UHGV virus genome: UHGV-0070112
From: a virus
Strand: one strand, 5' to 3'
Length of the DNA: 32,150 nt
This document shows, one piece after another, positions 3,734 through 12,587 of the stretch. Below the pieces are notes generated by a model. The model was given only the letters and a program-made list of their open reading frames with translations. It had not been told where the DNA came from and did no database searches. How positions within the stretch are numbered: position 1 is the first letter of the stretch; every line of letters begins with the position of its first letter. The position numbers and the translations under genes are program-made.

Positions 3734-3827
3734 CTCTTGCCTTACTATTCATAGCGGCCAGAACTTGCTTATCTGGCCCTTTCTCAAGTTTGATCAGGCG
3801 AGATTCAATATCGCTTGGCTTAGTCAT
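3678..3827 (-). CDS. Hypothetical 49-aa protein, coupled to o-spanin
   Basis: Manual translation MTKPSDIESRLIKLEKGPDKQVLAAMNSKARAIAGSLLNQIQVQALKDQ. ATG overlaps the o-spanin stop (ATGA) and has an AAGGA RBS. Below the track length cut-off. Confidence 0.35.
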   Translation of the reverse strand: MTKPSDIESRLIKLEKGPDKQVLAAMNSKARAIAGSLLNQIQVQALKDQ

Positions 3828-4054
3828 CGCGTAATCCTTTTGGTTGATTGCGGGCAGTTGGCCAGCACAGATTTGTTATGCGCCAGAATGTCGCGCTTCG
3901 TTTGTCTGTCCAGCGCGTCGATATCGTGATCAGTCAGGTAGATGATCCGCACCCAGTTGCAGGCGGTATCAACCACCACCGGGGCGGGTAAAGTTTTCGC
4001 GCAGCTCCCGATCAACATCGTCATCAGGCATATGGCTAACAGTCTGCTGTACAT
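3824..4054 (-). CDS. Putative o-spanin (Rz1-like lipoprotein)
   Basis: Start taken at internal Met (MYSRLLAICLMTMLIGSCAK...), giving a signal peptide plus lipobox-like IGSC. Overlaps the i-spanin candidate in a different frame, as Rz/Rz1 pairs do. Confidence 0.5.
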   Translation of the reverse strand: MYSRLLAICLMTMLIGSCAKTLPAPVVVDTACNWVRIIYLTDHDIDALDRQTKRDILAHNKSVLANCPQSTKRITR

Positions 4055-4244
4055 TGCTGGCCTCTTTCGTTGCTTGCGCCTTCCGTTCTGCCATGGCGAC
4101 GGTGGCGGTGGCGTTCTCTTCGGTTCGCTGCTGATCGGCTTTGGCTTCCGCCTTGCTGGTCCCGCGGGCATGGCCCAACCCAAATGCGCCAGCGACAATG
4201 GCCAGCAACGCAGCTGCCAGACCAATAATCATTTCAATGCCCAT
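3969..4244 (-). CDS. Putative i-spanin (Rz-like)
   Basis: Start revised to ATG 4244 (MGIEMIIGLAAALLAIVAGAF...) with GAGGT RBS, 8 nt after the endolysin stop. N-terminal TM helix then charged helical region. Confidence 0.45.
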   Translation of the reverse strand: MGIEMIIGLAAALLAIVAGAFGLGHARGTSKAEAKADQQRTEENATATVAMAERKAQATKEASNVQQTVSHMPDDDVDRELRENFTRPGGG

Positions 4245-4251
4245 AGTGACC

Positions 4252-4881
4252 TCACACCAGTACTGATTTAGCCTGATTAAACAGCGCTCGGCGTTTATCC
4301 AGACCGTTGCGGCCACCGTTAATAAGCAGTGTTACGCGCTCAACATCACCGGAATGAAGCAGGCAACCGTGGGAGACATAAAACCATGCGGCCGAACGTG
4401 CAGCGTAATCATCTCGCTCCAGCAGCTCAGGCTGGGTAACAAGGTCAAGTTTCAGCGCCTGTCCGCAGCTGCGATAGTTGCTCAAGCCCGTAACTTGTTT
4501 CAGGCCGCGACCGCGATATTTCCAGCCATCACCAGCAACCTGATTACCGAGATTCTTTTTGCCCCACTCGCCCCCATACACCAGATTAGCGATTGCTCGC
4601 TGATTCGCTGGTTGTGTTGCCGTTCTGCCGAGTGCGGCGGCCTGCTGGGCGGTGATACGGTGTTTGCCGAACGTAGGAACAAGTCTGTCGGCGGCGTAGT
4701 TCAGGCTTTCCACCAACGTTGTATAACCACCGGATTCATGCCCCATCTGCGCGATGAACATCGCCTGATCGAGTGGAGCTGTGATACCGAATTCTTTCAT
4801 CGCAGCATCAATGTGCGGAAACCAGCGCGCAGCTAACCCGGCGCTGATACCAGCCGCCCGTTGAAATTGTGATTGGTTCAT
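4252..4881 (-). CDS. Endolysin, GH19 chitinase-like lysozyme
   Basis: 209 aa; motifs FIAQMGHESGG and NLVYGGEWGKKNLGN typical of GH19-type phage lysozymes. Sits between holin-like and spanin genes. Confidence 0.8.
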   Translation of the reverse strand: MNQSQFQRAAGISAGLAARWFPHIDAAMKEFGITAPLDQAMFIAQMGHESGGYTTLVESLNYAADRLVPTFGKHRITAQQAAALGRTATQPANQRAIANLVYGGEWGKKNLGNQVAGDGWKYRGRGLKQVTGLSNYRSCGQALKLDLVTQPELLERDDYAARSAAWFYVSHGCLLHSGDVERVTLLINGGRNGLDKRRALFNQAKSVLV

Positions 4882-5162
4882 CAGTGCCTCAGTGCATCAA
4901 CAAGCCGTGCTACATTGCCTCTTACGCTCAGCAGCACAACAAGGATCATGATATTGGCCCCGATGGTGGGCCATGTTGAATAGGGATAGATGCCGCACAG
5001 ATACGCCAGCGGCACAGAGCTGTATAACACTGTTATCAGCCATGCCAGCCGGGAGACCCACTTACGATGCCGTGAATCTCGACGGCGATAGAACATCAGA
5101 GTAACCACGATACCAGCGCATAACAGCGCATTGATTGTTGCTGTCGGATCATTTAGTACCAC
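4881..5162 (-). CDS. Lysis-cassette membrane protein (holin/antiholin-like)
   Basis: 93 aa with about three hydrophobic helices; immediately upstream of the endolysin. Confidence 0.5.
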   Translation of the reverse strand: MVLNDPTATINALLCAGIVVTLMFYRRRDSRHRKWVSRLAWLITVLYSSVPLAYLCGIYPYSTWPTIGANIMILVVLLSVRGNVARLVDALRH

Positions 5163-5535
5163 CGGAACCTCCCCGGCGCGTTATTAGCGCCACCAGCGAG
5201 CCAATATCCTGATTGTTCAGGAAGGTGAGTATTTTCACGGCCAATGCCGAAATGATTACGGCACCAATAGCATCCAGCGGTTTATCGCTGTATCCGGTAA
5301 GGGCTGATAGCTTGGAGCCTACTAACCCGGCGCACAGAACACCGGCGATATAGGACACCACGAAATAAGCCATACGCCGTGTTGCGCTCAAATCGGCAGC
5401 GGTCGCTATATAAAATACAGAACCAGCAAATGCCCCGAACACAACACCGTAATCAGTACCGGTTAACAGCCCGTAAACACTCGCACCCGTTAAAGCGCCG
5501 CCAGCTAAGCCTGTGCCGGTTATTGGTTCGGACAT
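5149..5535 (-). CDS. Putative holin
   Basis: 128 aa, Gly/Ala-rich with multiple TM segments; first gene of the lysis block. Confidence 0.55.
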   Translation of the reverse strand: MSEPITGTGLAGGALTGASVYGLLTGTDYGVVFGAFAGSVFYIATAADLSATRRMAYFVVSYIAGVLCAGLVGSKLSALTGYSDKPLDAIGAVIISALAVKILTFLNNQDIGSLVALITRRGGSGGTK

Positions 5536-5777: not shown

Positions 5778-6188
5778 ATGGAAATTATTTCAGTAATCGG
5801 GGTGATACTGACACTGCTAGGGCTATTTATACCGTCACTAATCAGTAACCATTCGGCACGTAAGGCAGAGTTCAGGAAGCAATCCGCGCCACTGCTGGGA
5901 AAGTTGCTAAGCGAAATTGAGGCTATTGAAGGAGGCTCTTATCCATTCAGGCTTATCAGCGATGCTGATTTCAACCAGTTGCTACCTTACGCCCCGAGGC
6001 GCAGGAAAAACGCCCTCCTTGATGCTTACACCAGTTATCTCGACGCTCATACGATGGCCACCACGAAGCACTGGCACGATGAACATCCATCCGATGGAAT
6101 GCTATTTTTCCCGACGGGTTTCTTAGTCACTAATTCAGATGAGGTACTGAAGAAAATGCAACCTCTGAAAAAAGAACTCAGCAGATAG
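5778..6188 (+). CDS. Hypothetical membrane-anchored protein (moron, plus strand)
   Basis: 136 aa with N-terminal TM helix (IISVIGVILTLLGLFIPSLI). Opposite strand to the lysis genes; 3' end overlaps the convergent ORF 6135..6656. Confidence 0.45.
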   Translation: MEIISVIGVILTLLGLFIPSLISNHSARKAEFRKQSAPLLGKLLSEIEAIEGGSYPFRLISDADFNQLLPYAPRRRKNALLDAYTSYLDAHTMATTKHWHDEHPSDGMLFFPTGFLVTNSDEVLKKMQPLKKELSR

Positions 6189-6656
6189 TCCTTTAGGATG
6201 GCCGCCAGATGGATTTACGACTAAACACTGAAAGTGAGTGACGTTCTGGCGCACAAATGAAAAAAGCCACGCAAATGCGCAGCCCTTAGAAACGAAAAAG
6301 CCACCCGAAGGTGGCTCACTGTTCAGCGTTAGAGGTATACCCACCTTCGCCTTTAATGCAGCGTTATCATCTTTCAGGCGATCTACTTGGTTTTGCAACC
6401 TTTCAATTTCCTTATCGGTGTTGTCTCGGTCGCGCTGAAGACCTTTTATTACTTCACCTTGGGACGCCTGTACTTCTTTTGAGGCCTGAACGGCCGCCTC
6501 AGTCTCATCGACGGTGTTAATTAAACGAACCGTCAGGAATGAAACAATGGCCATCAGAAGAACGACCATAGCGGTAAGAATCCAGACCTTCACGCCGGAA
6601 GCAGAATTATCAGAGGCTTCTATAAGAAATTCCTTATGAATAGAAAAAATACCCAA
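6135..6656 (-). CDS. TM plus coiled-coil protein, start and C-terminus uncertain
   Basis: TM helix (VKVWILTAMVVLLMAIVSFL) followed by a heptad-like segment (EIERLQNQVDRLKDDNAALKAKVG). No ATG start with RBS. The C-terminal third reads through a perfect hairpin at ~6296-6316 and looks non-protein-like. Confidence 0.35.
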   Translation of the reverse strand: MGIFSIHKEFLIEASDNSASGVKVWILTAMVVLLMAIVSFLTVRLINTVDETEAAVQASKEVQASQGEVIKGLQRDRDNTDKEIERLQNQVDRLKDDNAALKAKVGIPLTLNSEPPSGGFFVSKGCAFAWLFSFVRQNVTHFQCLVVNPSGGHPKGLSAEFFFQRLHFLQYLI

Positions 6657-7242
6657 CGCGCGGCCGCGACGTTAGAACCATGGGTATTTTAACTACATAA
6701 GGTTATGAAGATCTTCGGAAAAAATGAGATGATGGTTTGTTTGGTTATTTAATGAGCGAAAACAGCCAAAATCCCCATGCAGGGATGATAAAAAACGTCA
6801 TTGTGTAGACGACTGCAGGCTGTAATTTATTCAAATTAAATTTCCTTAGTAGGGCTCTATGTGTCCTACAACATCCAACCTACCTAAAGACATTGATTGA
6901 TACAAGAGGAAAAACACTACTTTTTTATCAAATTGGGATCGGTTTTGTTTCCGATGGCGCGGCATTATACGGAGATAACCCAAGTTATCAACAGAAATTG
7001 CCAGCATATGTACGCAAAATGTGCTGTTTCTAATTTTGAGATGGTTGTGGTGCCGGGTGCCTCCCGGTGAGCATGCCCCAACAGACATTACTCGCGCGGT
7101 ATTCACAGGGCTTTCGCTCTATTAGTTGGACGCCCCTCCGCATAGGGGGATTCACCACACGGATAATTTAGGATGTAGTCATAGGCGGCGTCAATAACTG
7201 ACACTCTGTCAAAGGCACCATTACGATGCCTTTTGCACAGTG

Positions 7243-7398
7243 CTAATCACTGGATCTAATAAGGGGCCAGAGCAAAGCGATTACCCCAGCTACCAGCACG
7301 CCATCAGCCAGGATTGACATCATTTTGCTGGTGAAGTCGATAGCAACCACCAGAAACAAAAGCACCCCGGCTGCGGCCCAGCGAAGTTTACCGATCAC
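7243..7398 (-). CDS. Hypothetical 51-aa two-TM peptide, coupled to TerB-like gene
   Basis: Manual translation (M)IGKLRWAAAGVLLFLVVAIDFTSKMMSILADGVLVAGVIALLWPLIRSSD. GTG start overlaps the TerB stop (GTGA). Below the track length cut-off. Confidence 0.35.
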   Translation of the reverse strand: MIGKLRWAAAGVLLFLVVAIDFTSKMMSILADGVLVAGVIALLWPLIRSSD

Positions 7399-7820
7399 AG
7401 GTACTGGTCCAGAGGAAGTTGCAGAGCTTGGGCAATTTTCTTCAGCTGTTTCTCTTCTTCTTCCCCGATACCGTCATTATCTGCTACATCAAGACACAGG
7501 CAAAGAACATCGACAGCGTCATCCGTCCCGGCAACATCAGCCAGTTCGCGCAACGCCTGAGCGTTGGCTGAACGCGGCGATGCTTCGTAACGAGCGCGAA
7601 TATTCGAACTCATCTGGGCAATTTCACCAGCAAATGGCGCGAATGCCGGCAGGGCCGAAATAGTCTTCTCCAGCACTGCAATCTCTTTTGCATCGCAGGT
7701 ACCATCGGCGTATGCAATCGAGTACGCTCCCCAGACCGTGGCTTCTACAGCATCGCGGTTTTCCATTTTTTTCACTTCAACAACGGCTTTACGGGCTTTC
7801 TTTTTAAAAATACCAAACAT
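7395..7820 (-). CDS. TerB-like domain protein
   Basis: 141 aa with acidic helical TerB-like core (CLCLDVADNDGIGEEEEKQLKKIAQALQL). AAGGA RBS upstream. Confidence 0.55.
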   Translation of the reverse strand: MFGIFKKKARKAVVEVKKMENRDAVEATVWGAYSIAYADGTCDAKEIAVLEKTISALPAFAPFAGEIAQMSSNIRARYEASPRSANAQALRELADVAGTDDAVDVLCLCLDVADNDGIGEEEEKQLKKIAQALQLPLDQYL

Positions 7821-7952
7821 AGTGACTTTCCTTTTAGCGGGTGAGCCAGCGCTCAGGAATGATCAGCCCACAGAGACAGTCACACTGACTATTCCCTATG
7901 GCTCACCCCTGAAAGGCTCTGTGGTTATATAACGCCGAGCGTGGCGCAGATA

Positions 7953-7977
7953 CGAAAAAGGCCCGCAAATGCGAGCC
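7953..7977 (-). terminator. Intrinsic terminator between late-leader region and TerB-like gene
   Basis: Minus-strand hairpin GGCUCGC-AUUU-GCGGGCC followed by UUUUU. Confidence 0.5.
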
Positions 7978-8373
7978 TGGTTGATCCGCTTACTGATACG
8001 GAGCGACCAACCTAAGTTGTCGCAGATTCAAATTGTGGCCCTGCCTTTAAGTCACTTTGCGCGCAGCTGGGACATGTAGTTTTCGCATCGTGATCGGGAT
8101 TCGCTTCAGGCGCTGGCCCCGCAGCCATATAAGTGCCGGTTACGGTTCCGGCCAGGCCTCTTCCTCAACGGGTTATTCTCCATACGGATTTCCGTTTGTT
8201 GGTCGTTCCTGCGATCTCAATTTTCCGGTTACGTTTATCCGGTGGCTTACGCCCGGTTTAGCCCTAAGGTAAGGGATTTGGTTGTGGTGGCAGGCGCCCA
8301 TCTCCTGCTTAACGTCAATCAACGCTTGCACATCGCTACGTTATGGGCCGGGATCAACCGATATTTTCGCTCG

Positions 8374-8476
8374 CCACAACGGAAAGAGCACTGGTAATCT
8401 GTAGCGGGTATTTACTCGCGCACGCCGTTTTGACGTGCGGCCCATTTCAGCATGGTCAATGATCTTACCTGTTGTG
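8374..8476 (-). other. Paired-motif element, late-leader copy
   Basis: Minus strand reads CACAACAGGTAAGATCATTG ... ~80 nt ... CCAGTGCTCTTTCCGTTGTGG; the two arms are imperfect reverse complements. A second copy is at 23361-23475 on the plus strand. No credible ORF in 7978-8538. Confidence 0.3.
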
Positions 8477-8538
8477 CGCTCCGTTTCGTGGAGCAGACGC
8501 CGCCGGAATCGCACCGGCAGAATCATCACATTGGTATA

Positions 8539-8570
8539 TGGTGCTGGTTGACGGAATCGAACCGCCGTAG
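8539..8570 (-). tRNA. tRNA 3' segment (T-arm, acceptor 3' strand, CCA)
   Basis: Minus strand ctac-GGCGG-TTCGATT-CCGTC-AACCAGC-A-CCA. Acceptor 3' strand AACCAGC is the exact complement of the 5' strand GCTGGTT at 9037-9043. Begins 1 nt after the HNH stop codon. Confidence 0.45.
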
Positions 8571-8990
8571 CTATTTCGTTATTTCCAATAAACCTGCGTG
8601 GACTTTTCTGTGGCAATTAGCACAGAGGACAATACACTTCCTCACTTCATCTTTAAGTCGATTTCGTGATCTGCCACATAGATTGGAAGGGTCGCCTTCT
8701 TTGCTGCCGGCGTTGTCATGATGAAGATCCAGAACAACAGGTTCTTTTTCTCCGCAATTTTGGCATCCTATGAAGCGTTTATATCGAGCTAGAAACTGAC
8801 GGTTTGAACTTGTTTTTCTCGTTCTCGTTGACTTTATTAGCTGTCGCCTTGACTCATTGGTTGCATAACTCAAAGCATCTCTTTCCTTAGCGCACGCCTT
8901 ACAGATATTTTGTAGGCCATCGCTCTTTCCTTTGTTTTTATGGAAATCGGAAGCAGATTTTAACTCTTTGCATTTGCTACAAATTTTCAT
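8571..8990 (-). CDS. HNH endonuclease with N-terminal Cys-rich motif
   Basis: 139 aa; N-terminal CSKCKELK...CKAC and C-terminal HNH motif (LDLHHDN...CANCHRKVH). AT-rich by eye. AGGA RBS. Lies between the two halves of the tRNA-like gene. Confidence 0.8.
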   Translation of the reverse strand: MKICSKCKELKSASDFHKNKGKSDGLQNICKACAKERDALSYATNESRRQLIKSTRTRKTSSNRQFLARYKRFIGCQNCGEKEPVVLDLHHDNAGSKEGDPSNLCGRSRNRLKDEVRKCIVLCANCHRKVHAGLLEITK

Positions 8991-10642: not shown

Positions 10643-11527
10643 TTGACAAAAATTGAGGCAACCTTGGAAAGTTCGACCACCTTTAAAATCTTCTACGATG
10701 CTGAAGATGATGAGTTAGCACAGCATAAAATTGACGCGAAAACTTTAAGTCTTTCAATTGGCTCAATGGCAGAATTGATTTCCAAAGCAGATAAAAATCT
10801 TAATGACGGGCAAGAAACAGTCAAATTAATGGTTACAACACCTGCTGCTGAAGGCTCAATTGGTGTTGTTTATTCAATGATGGAGTTAGTCCCTAATGCT
10901 ATAAACGTGGCTAAAGTTATCGGTTTAACGGCAGCAGGAGGGGCTTTTATTGGTGCTCCCGCGCTTTCATTGATCCGGCAGTTAGGGAGTAAAAGAGTTA
11001 TATCGATTACTAAAAGACCCCAGACGCATGAAGCCGTCCTTGAGCTTGAAGATGGGGAAATTGTTTGTAACGATGCTGTTGCAAAATTAGTTACTGATCC
11101 TGAAATACGTCAAGCTCTGGTTAACGTCGTAAGGGCTCCTCTTGATGGTAAAACCAATCCTGTTTTTAAAATCCTTGACCAGGAAGGTAACGAGGTCTTG
11201 CGGCTTGAGAATGAGGAAACAGAAGAGGTAAAACCTTTACCTCGTGGTACACTTCTTGAAAAAGAAGTATCAATCGATGAGGTGAATGTTCGATTCGTCC
11301 AAGTGAACTTTGAAGGAAACAAAGGATGGAGAATTGATTACCTTGGGGATGAACATTCAGTTAGCCTAGATGACAACGTGTTCCTTTCTCAGGTCCAAGC
11401 TGCAACAGTGCAATTCTCCAAAGAAGATCTTTACGTTGTTGATCTAGAAACTATTAAAACGTACACAGCCCGTGGGGTAACGCATCGTTACACCATAAAG
11501 AAGGTTAAGCGTAAGCGCCCAGCGTAA
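10643..11527 (+). CDS. Hypothetical protein A of AT-rich three-gene cassette
   Basis: 294 aa, no recognisable catalytic motif. TTG start (first in-frame ATG is 40 codons in); AGGTAGG upstream. Visibly AT-rich. Convergent with Q. Confidence 0.45.
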   Translation: MTKIEATLESSTTFKIFYDAEDDELAQHKIDAKTLSLSIGSMAELISKADKNLNDGQETVKLMVTTPAAEGSIGVVYSMMELVPNAINVAKVIGLTAAGGAFIGAPALSLIRQLGSKRVISITKRPQTHEAVLELEDGEIVCNDAVAKLVTDPEIRQALVNVVRAPLDGKTNPVFKILDQEGNEVLRLENEETEEVKPLPRGTLLEKEVSIDEVNVRFVQVNFEGNKGWRIDYLGDEHSVSLDDNVFLSQVQAATVQFSKEDLYVVDLETIKTYTARGVTHRYTIKKVKRKRPA

Positions 11528-12221: not shown

Positions 12222-12587
12222 TTAACAATCTAGATCAAGACGGATGTCTAACATTGATAGACATCCGTCAATAAAACCTTCAGCCATCTGTATCTCGATC
12301 CGGATCAACTTCTCATCTTTCTTTTGCGCCTTAGCTATTTTACGTTTCGAGATACCGTACAGGTAATGAGCCACGAGCAAACTGTGCTCGTATGGCTTCT
12401 TTTCTCGAAGCCTTGCCAAACAGCCTTCTATGATCAGCGCATCATCATCAGTACAGCACAAGCGCGTTTTTCCGCCCTGCGGAAGAAGCCCCTTAAAACC
12501 TGCTGCAATGTGGGAATAATCAATACCGGAGCTGTCAGCTGCCGCCCAGCCTCCCCATAAATCTAAAACCTTTTGCATGTCACGCAT
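12222..12587 (-). CDS. Phage antitermination protein Q (QuuD-like)
   Basis: 121 aa; motifs LDLWGGWAA, FKGLL, CCTDDDALIIEGCLARL match the small Q-family antiterminators of lambdoid prophages as I recall them. Confidence 0.7.
   Translation of the reverse strand: MRDMQKVLDLWGGWAAADSSGIDYSHIAAGFKGLLPQGGKTRLCCTDDDALIIEGCLARLREKKPYEHSLLVAHYLYGISKRKIAKAQKKDEKLIRIEIQMAEGFIDGCLSMLDIRLDLDC

Follow-up and report, generated by a model that had tools for sequence, protein, structure and literature searches.

A conserved prophage cassette between Q and the lysis genes carries a membrane coiled-coil gene with a predicted terminator ahead of any stop codon

Ribosomes that translate a transcript lacking a stop codon stall at its 3′ end, and trans-translation then adds an SsrA tag to the product, which is degraded. 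In brfA of Bacillus subtilis, an internal rho-independent terminator gives rise to a non-stop mRNA whose product is SsrA-tagged and degraded (PMC6881298), and arfA of Escherichia coli is similar, with a hairpin that serves as an RNase III site or terminator before the stop codon (PMC3989581). Here we analyse a 32,150-nucleotide (nt) stretch of the virus genome UHGV-0070112 (the window), a lambdoid prophage of an enterobacterium, and within it a minus-strand open reading frame (ORF), ORF-2, in which a predicted intrinsic terminator, T1, precedes any stop codon. To our knowledge, natural regulation by non-stop mRNA is established for only a few genes (arfA and brfA), all of them rescue machinery; terminator-before-stop control is known from these two, and as far as we found there is no report of it for a phage gene. 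Judged from its conservation, ORF-2 is an intact gene and part of a self-contained cassette at the head of the late operon, between the antiterminator gene Q and the lysis genes.

Phage morons are promoter-gene-terminator units in late operons, such as lambda bor, lom or stx. Phage late promoters are constitutive, their transcription being terminated directly downstream in lysogens and reading through when Q acts (PMC7547250). The cassette that holds ORF-2 is about 700 bp long and consists of a promoter (P), ORF-1, encoding a membrane peptide of 29 amino acids (aa), ORF-2, encoding a transmembrane (TM) helix and a coiled coil, and T1. We compared 74 sequences, namely the window and 73 fetched related prophage loci from Enterobacterales. 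Blast homology to all of these loci spans ~7000–7031 to ~6288, which are the limits of the cassette: it begins just upstream of promoter P and ends immediately after the run of T residues (T-run) of T1. As in a moron, the cargo is flanked by its own promoter (6991–6964) and its own terminator (T1, 6317–6290), and homology ends there.

The ORF-2 protein has 42 database homologues, with lengths of 97–184 aa, from Klebsiella, Raoultella, Enterobacter, Citrobacter, Serratia, Edwardsiella, Pantoea and Cronobacter, the closest coming from Klebsiella pneumoniae. The family is narrow, with 17 cluster representatives at E ≤ 1e-10 when 1.84 billion representatives were searched exhaustively with a profile. 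Among the sequenced phages of INPHARED, neither DNA nor protein searches matched the cassette, and of 5,426 complete E. coli genomes only one has it. All homologues, down to ~50% identity, keep the ORF-2 architecture. A distant relative, P0071 (48% identical), begins MSIEASS... and ends right after the coiled coil, and the more distant relatives have ordinary ATG starts.

T1 (6290–6317, minus strand) reads GAGCCACC-TTCG-GGTGGCTT followed by TTTCGTTT. Seen from the plus strand, its hairpin is AGCCACC (6299–6305), a CGAA loop and GGTGGCT (6310–6316); the initial annotation had described an ORF running through a perfect 7-bp hairpin, and this is correct, with the hairpin placed at 6299–6316. A terminator scan classed the hairpin as terminator-like at 6317–6298 on the minus strand only, as the plus strand has no T-run after it. 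At least nine sequence versions of the hairpin occur, with various loops and with indels in loop and stem, and the ORF-2 frame is open in all of them; stem versions include GAGCCACC/GGTGGCTT, AAGGCTGCC/GGCAGCTT, GGCTGCCCC/GGGGCGGC, AGCTGCC/GGCGGCT and GGTCGCC/GGCGGCC. Pair counts showed covariation: 95.6% of cells were paired and three pairs changed on both sides, a result reached by 0 of 500 shuffles, and slid controls were 29–64% paired. Unpaired cells came solely from two sequences, in which a hairpin with a 3-nt loop is offset by one column. Folding energies of the 22 distinct sequences of the hairpin region all fell between −13 and −18 kcal/mol, and at least five T follow in each. With its GC-rich stem, T-run directly after it and compensatory changes, T1 has the sequence features of a canonical intrinsic terminator of the minus strand, and it is predicted to terminate transcription in vivo.

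The reading frame of ORF-2 stays open through the stem and T-run in all 41 distinct 3′ variants. Its in-frame stop comes 12–171 nt after the start of the T-run, always at least 3 nt past the T-run. Because the terminator precedes any stop, transcripts ending at T1 would have no stop codon for ORF-2. Of 29 distinct segments from the LKAK motif to the end of the T-run, none has a stop in the ORF frame; the two remaining frames contain stops in 24 and 16 of these segments. A single base change in the loop, from TCG or AAG to TAG, would give a harmless stop, and none was seen among the variants. A polyproline stall at the hairpin-encoded residues (EPPS or KPPK) was considered and rejected, since other variants encode AASGQ, AAPRGG, LPKGG or VADGG. 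The terminator scan also found a second terminator-like hairpin with a T-run, T2 (6252–6287, minus strand; hairpin 6287–6262), which lies beyond the conserved part of ORF-2 and is common only to the closest (Klebsiella-type) loci.

In the ORF list, ORF-2 appears as 6135–6656 on the minus strand, 173 aa from a TTG; the frame has no ATG or GTG with a Shine-Dalgarno (SD) sequence and reads through both T1 and T2. Its conserved coding part, delimited by the 42 homologues and by codon periodicity, covers 6297–6623 (minus strand). It encodes, in order, a short N-terminus, the TM helix, a coiled coil of ~75 residues, a GIPLTLNS motif and the hairpin-encoded EPPSGGFF. The remaining 6135–6296 (minus strand) is an unconserved read-through tail that contains T2, runs to the first chance stop and overlaps the 3′ end of a convergent gene. 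The alignment of homologues extends from the N-terminal region to ...LKAK-x-GIPLTLNS-EPPSGGFF, and the tails beyond are unrelated. The last third of the ORF had been called non-protein-like, in keeping with its conservation in no homologue; nor is the full 173-aa protein conserved as written, since only the residues up to ...GGFF are shared.

Diversity at the first, second and third codon positions was.31/.19/.59 in the TM helix,.21/.17/.43 in the coiled coil,.37/.26/.52 in the VGIPLTLNS segment,.21/.28/.21 in the hairpin and ~.61 at all three positions after the T-run. The flat values in the hairpin point to structural rather than coding constraint there. Synonymous series are visible in GIPLTLN (GGT/GGG/GGA, ATA/ATT/ATC and CCT/CCA/CCC/CCG). 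The idea that the gene had been damaged by a frameshift or stop loss is refuted by the third-position variation, which follows the ORF frame up to the hairpin, and by the same frame continuing through the hairpin in 41/41 variants. An alternative frame reading GEGGYTSNAEQ and then stopping, at a TGA at the stem, was likewise rejected: the TGA is present in one subclade only and codon-position diversity contradicts this frame.

Translation of ORF-2 probably begins at a near-cognate AUA codon (ATA, 6621–6623, minus strand), which is conserved and preceded by the SD sequence AAGGAA (6630–6635, minus strand) at 6–7 nt. Of 46 distinct variants, 41 have ATA and 4 have ATC here, at a fixed distance from a conserved ASG-x-K-V-W motif, and an SD sequence (AAGGA, AAGGT or GAGG) stands 7–9 nt before the ATA or ATC in 45 of the 46. 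In several lineages an in-frame stop lies 1–4 codons 5′ of this codon, with no ATG, GTG or TTG before the conserved N-terminus (L019, L020, L028, L031, L036 and L039 have no canonical start there). Codon periodicity sets in at the ATA (.25/.20/.42 from there on), and the sequence directly before it shows none (.35/.32/.26). In P0071, the ATG is two codons before the residue equivalent to the ATA. Two other starts were rejected: the TTG at 6656, as the stretch from it to the ATA shows no periodicity, and an internal ATG (M30 of the 173-aa ORF), which is too far downstream, the interval from ATA to ATG being clearly coding. The initial annotation had been right that a good start codon is missing, and wrong to see a lesion in this, the SD sequence and ATA or ATC being conserved in all but one variant.

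AUA, AUC and AUU initiate at ~1–2% of the level of AUG in E. coli, where infC and pcnB have the only confirmed natural near-cognate starts (10.1101/063800). Both of these E. coli genes, which use AUU, resemble ORF-2 in having a conserved near-cognate start behind a normal SD sequence; they differ in the codon, which is AUA in ORF-2 (AUC in four variants). By analogy, ORF-2 would probably show low initiation that is sensitive to initiation factor 3 (IF3).

Promoter P (6964–6991, minus strand) has the hexamers TTGATA and TATAAT separated by a 16-nt spacer and followed by the GC-rich GCCGCGCCATCG, and agrees with the consensus at 11 of 12 positions. The hexamers and the downstream GC block GCCGCGCCATCG are kept in all lineages, and the spacer and upstream sequence are variable; the site was also found in L004 and L023. 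We take its GC-rich discriminator to resemble that of rrn P1 promoters. ORF-1 (6745–6834, minus strand) encodes the hydrophobic 29-aa peptide MNKLQPAVVYTMTFFIIPAWGFWLFSLIK behind the SD sequence CTAAGGA, with a TTG start in the window and ATG in distant lineages. It is present with its SD sequence in 74/74 sequences and shows strong coding periodicity (π1/2/3 of.188/.064/.304). The peptide had no match in Pfam, NCBIfam or PADLOC, and none to a toxin or holin family. RefSeq leaves it unannotated in E. coli M172-1. Two further elements lie in the spacer between ORF-1 and ORF-2: a −10-like hexamer, TAAAAT (6686–6691, minus strand), conserved in alignments as TAnAAT across lineages, and a covarying hairpin, CTAACGTCGC-GGCC-GCGCGTTGG (6653–6675, minus strand), for which RNAalifold gave eight pairs, five with compensatory changes. 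Together these might mark a site of processing or pausing, or a second promoter with a stem-loop at the 5′ end of its transcript.

That ORF-2 encodes a real membrane and coiled-coil protein adjoining the lysis cassette, as first proposed, is borne out by profile searches and by AlphaFold2, which with the family alignment predicted one long helix over residues 5–93 (TM helix plus coiled coil) and a disordered tail (mean predicted local distance difference test score, 76). Its suggested spanin-like nature is a matter of architecture alone. The PHROGs match, phrog_1026, was below threshold (E = 0.004) and gave no assignment as an i-spanin; NCBIfam LysB scored 13.5 bits against a cut-off of 92.75 (E = 0.065); no partner o-spanin lipoprotein ORF is present; and a separate Rz-like gene lies elsewhere (3824–4225, minus strand). 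Rz-type i-spanins and the bitopic FtsB/DivIC proteins share with ORF-2 an N-terminal TM helix followed by a long coiled coil, and Rz-type i-spanins also share its location beside lysis genes. Searches of ORF-2 against Pfam, PHROGs, NCBIfam, PADLOC and PDB profiles returned nothing or sub-threshold coiled-coil noise, and neither ArfA nor BrfA was matched among the Pfam matches listed (best 25 of 34) and the NCBIfam hits at E ≤ 1. A lysis or envelope role is suggested, as a guess, by position and architecture.

Database annotation of the ORF-2 family is systematically wrong, as in locus L001 (3908–4297; NZ_CP058714.1, WP_157915242.1). Annotated starts lie at non-conserved ATG codons or internal Met residues, annotated C-termini carry 2 to >50 junk residues beyond the terminator, and some members go under the names 'conjugal transfer protein TraF' or 'cell division protein FtsB'. 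Both names are coiled-coil artefacts: Pfam TraF_2 scored 23.7 and 20.2 bits against a gathering score of 25, with 69 of 264 positions covered, and Pfam DivIC (FtsB/DivIC) 16.5–18.1 bits against 28.9. Gene callers mis-annotate every member of the ORF-2 family and overlook the 29-aa ORF-1 entirely.

In the related loci, the nearest upstream gene on the same strand is a Q antiterminator; the 28 distinct upstream genes matched PF06323 (11), PF03589 (8) and PF06530 (5), plus DUF1133 (6). Downstream of the terminator these loci carry holins and endolysins of many PHROG families. The cassette therefore lies downstream of Q and upstream of the lysis genes and ends in a terminator, the position of a PR′-tR′ unit. 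Loci with several unrelated Q families are accompanied by the identical promoter P, and L054 and L023 have a separate promoter-like site between Q and the cassette, followed in L054 by a short terminator. Promoter P is probably not PR′, the target of Q itself.

The anatomy of the cassette and its conservation are solid, as are its place in the genome, the coding frame and the covariation of the terminator. For the living cell we infer termination at T1, initiation at the AUA, tagging and degradation of the product, and read-through under Q. Q-modified polymerases ignore terminators. On balance, and with little to spare over an even chance, we favour a reading of the sequences in which ORF-2 is completed only when the phage overrides T1, its expression being confined to the late, lysis-committed phase. 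Two brakes would act on the gene: the conserved AUA behind a good SD sequence would limit initiation, and the in-frame T1 would come ahead of any stop. Transcripts from promoter P, or from a polymerase not modified by Q, would end at T1 and become non-stop mRNAs; ribosomes reaching their 3′ ends would be rescued by transfer-messenger RNA (tmRNA), and the SsrA-tagged ORF-2 product would be degraded. In the late phase, Q-modified polymerase would pass T1 and reach a chance stop, yielding an untagged protein made of the conserved part plus an arbitrary tail. ORF-2 would in this way remain silent until the late phase even though the cassette has a strong promoter; ORF-1 ends at a normal stop and could be made from promoter P at any time.

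Several points weigh against late-phase completion by read-through. A stop before the terminator would be a simpler design for a late protein, so that the present arrangement would need a selective reason. With Q 5 kb away and cargo in between, read-through of T1 depends on antitermination persisting that far; antitermination over ~5 kb is normal for Q. Some lineages carry an ATG six codons upstream of the ATA (MHKEF...), without an SD sequence, that may replace it. The 74 sequences correspond to perhaps ten lineages, so that counts overstate independence. Finally, the arbitrary tails of 2 to >50 residues on a read-through product might do harm, which would lend weight to an alternative in which function resides in the truncated product. 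Such a product, ORF-2 up to about ...EPPSGGF, would be made from the non-stop transcript of promoter P and normally destroyed through tmRNA tagging, and the prophage would thereby respond to ribosome-rescue status, as an arfA/brfA-like sensor. Protein conservation that stops exactly at the terminator, with random tails beyond as in arfA/brfA, speaks for this, as does the retention of a near-consensus promoter P, hard to explain if late read-through alone matters. We nevertheless consider it unlikely: ORF-2 has no similarity to rescue factors in the Pfam, NCBIfam and PDB profile searches, a sensor with an AUA start would be very weak, and read-through under Q accounts more simply for a location at the head of the late operon.

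The arrangement could also be neutral sloppiness, with T1 chancing to overlap the 3′ end of a minor gene, the AUA and the missing upstream stop having no regulatory meaning, and enough read-through, or enough product escaping tagging, for the gene to function. GC-rich stems seldom contain stop codons, the loci are phylogenetically related so that 41/41 does not stand for 41 independent events, and the family, at 17 cluster representatives, is small. Against this, the other two frames carry stops in 16–24 of the 29 distinct segments, at least nine different hairpins with indels all keep the frame open, and the harmless TAG one loop base away never appears. The ATG starts of distant relatives and the ordinary end of P0071 suggest that the two oddities arose secondarily and were kept as a pair, which also argues against neutrality, and we rate this account somewhat below the sensor. 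A further proposal is that a ribosome on ORF-2, following closely after the polymerase, occludes the 5′ arm of T1 and thereby prevents termination, so that the translation rate of ORF-2 would set the leak from promoter P into the holin and endolysin genes. ORF-2 does span the whole stem in every variant, and a weak start with a structured spacer could tune ribosome loading, but a constitutive leak into lysis genes would be lethal to the lysogen, the AUA start would make coupled ribosomes rare, and beyond T1 the window has a second terminator and a convergent gene; we regard it as very improbable. We give almost no credence to the view that ORF-2 is a pseudogene, a lysis-accessory gene inactivated by frameshift or stop loss. 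This view could draw on the lack of a canonical start and on the window's alternative frame, which ends with TGA exactly at the stem; the restriction of that TGA to one subclade, the third-position variation supporting the ORF frame to the hairpin and the same architecture in all homologues to ~50% identity stand against it.

Beyond completion in the late phase, we tentatively raise a wider reading, rather unlikely, in which ORF-2 would be an expression gate, completed only if Q overrides T1 or if host tmRNA rescue fails. If so, a lysis, envelope or altruistic-death function would be coupled to antitermination and to trans-translation status, IF3-dependent tuning would come in addition from the conserved AUA start, and this would be the first non-stop switch of the arfA/brfA style outside ribosome-rescue genes and the first in a virus. 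ORF-2 would extend the logic of non-stop regulation to viruses and to membrane proteins, and it would offer a directly testable case of a prophage silencing a late protein despite a strong local promoter.

The convergent neighbour at 5778–6188 (plus strand) is a conserved hypothetical gene of 136 aa with an ATG start and an N-terminal TM helix. It has 23 full-length homologues (48–96% identity, mostly exactly 136 aa) in Klebsiella, Kosakonia, E. coli, Leclercia, Enterobacter, Mixta, Erwinia and Salmonella, and its product had no family match in Pfam, PHROGs and PADLOC profile searches. In the window its neighbours are T1/T2 on one side and the holin gene on the other; in E. coli prophages it is flanked by tciB and the holin gene, within the interval from Q to the lysis genes and on the opposite strand. 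It is absent from 73/73 related cassette-carrying loci. We conclude that it is a genuine, conserved and separately inserted gene, in agreement with the initial annotation, which had taken it for an insertion. The two ORFs do converge and overlap as that annotation stated, sharing 54 nt (6135–6188) in the ORF list; the overlap involves only the unconserved tail of ORF-2, a stretch without meaning.

Past the cassette, the next minus-strand gene of the late operon is the first holin gene of the lysis cassette (5149–5535; Phage_holin_8, 8e-35; phrog_198, 2e-42), with the convergent gene in between. A second holin (4881–5162) and a GH19 (glycoside hydrolase family 19) endolysin (4252–4881), both on the minus strand, were identified by family profile searches. 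Upstream of ORF-2 lie tciB and tciA (7243–7820, minus strand) and, from profile searches, a methylase and further cargo genes. The tciA/tciB-like pair of this late region comprises a TerB-domain protein of 141 aa and a DUF3927 protein of 51 aa, and a similar pair adjoins the 136-aa convergent gene in E. coli prophages too (L074 and L075). The ~750 nt at 7820–8570, bounded by tciA and a 139-aa Zn-ribbon/HNH-like gene (8571–8990), contain no convincing ORF on either strand and no tRNA or Rfam match. At 10643–11527 (plus strand, opposite in orientation to the late operon), a 294-aa gene had matches to PDC-S42, a candidate defence family of PADLOC (6e-31), and to phrog_3243; we regard it as probable defence cargo, situated between Q and the lysis region.

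The Q-like antiterminator gene of the window (12222–12587, minus strand; phrog_79, 6e-41) is ~5 kb upstream of the cassette, and tblastn with the Q proteins of related loci matches the same interval. Almost 7 kb, with several cargo genes on both strands, separates it from the first holin gene downstream. Given these cargo genes, late transcription must remain antiterminated across at least three terminator-like sites.

An STnc100 element (RF02076; 6989–7189, minus strand) gave a full-length Rfam match of 71.6 bits against a gathering score of 47. The match (7189–6989) is poor in the 3′ terminator part, the element abuts the cassette promoter, and a promoter-like TTGACG, 18 nt, TAAATT at 7194–7165 precedes it. 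Rfam searches of the cassette gave nothing beyond a sub-threshold Leu-leader match at both terminators, the upstream STnc100 being the only find. In L031-type loci, an STnc100-homologous element lies downstream of the cassette terminator instead. STnc100 has been related to the prophage small RNA PasD, near which Q genes are found (2026 preprint).

Among described systems, the lambda PR′-tR′ leader (6S RNA) and StxS of Stx phages resemble the cassette as units between Q and the lysis genes that end in an intrinsic terminator. In the lysogen these leaders, although transcribed constitutively, stop at that terminator, which polymerase passes when Q acts (PMC7547250). They are short RNAs without coding function that arise at the promoter targeted by Q itself, whereas the cassette unit is ~660 nt long and encodes two membrane proteins, and its promoter is common to loci with several unrelated Q families. 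Like morons, the cassette has its own sigma-70 promoter and terminator and is present or absent between conserved neighbours, in combination with various Q and lysis modules. The classical moron, however, has its terminator after the stop codon and its gene is expressed in the prophage; translation of ORF-2 would be unable to terminate normally on the moron's own transcript.

The likeness to brfA and arfA lies in a hairpin within the ORF upstream of the stop and in sequence conservation that ends at the hairpin: ORF-2 has the hairpin in its frame, no stop before the end of the T-run in 41/41 variants and a variable tail. This would place ORF-2 with arfA and brfA by likeness of mechanism, not by homology. 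ArfA and BrfA are cytoplasmic ribosome-rescue factors that back up tmRNA, and ORF-2 encodes an unrelated prophage membrane coiled-coil protein. Unlike theirs, its terminator lies in a late operon antiterminated by Q, so that read-through would provide a second, regulated route to the complete product, and the probable AUA start is a feature that ORF-2 has in addition to the arfA/brfA arrangement.

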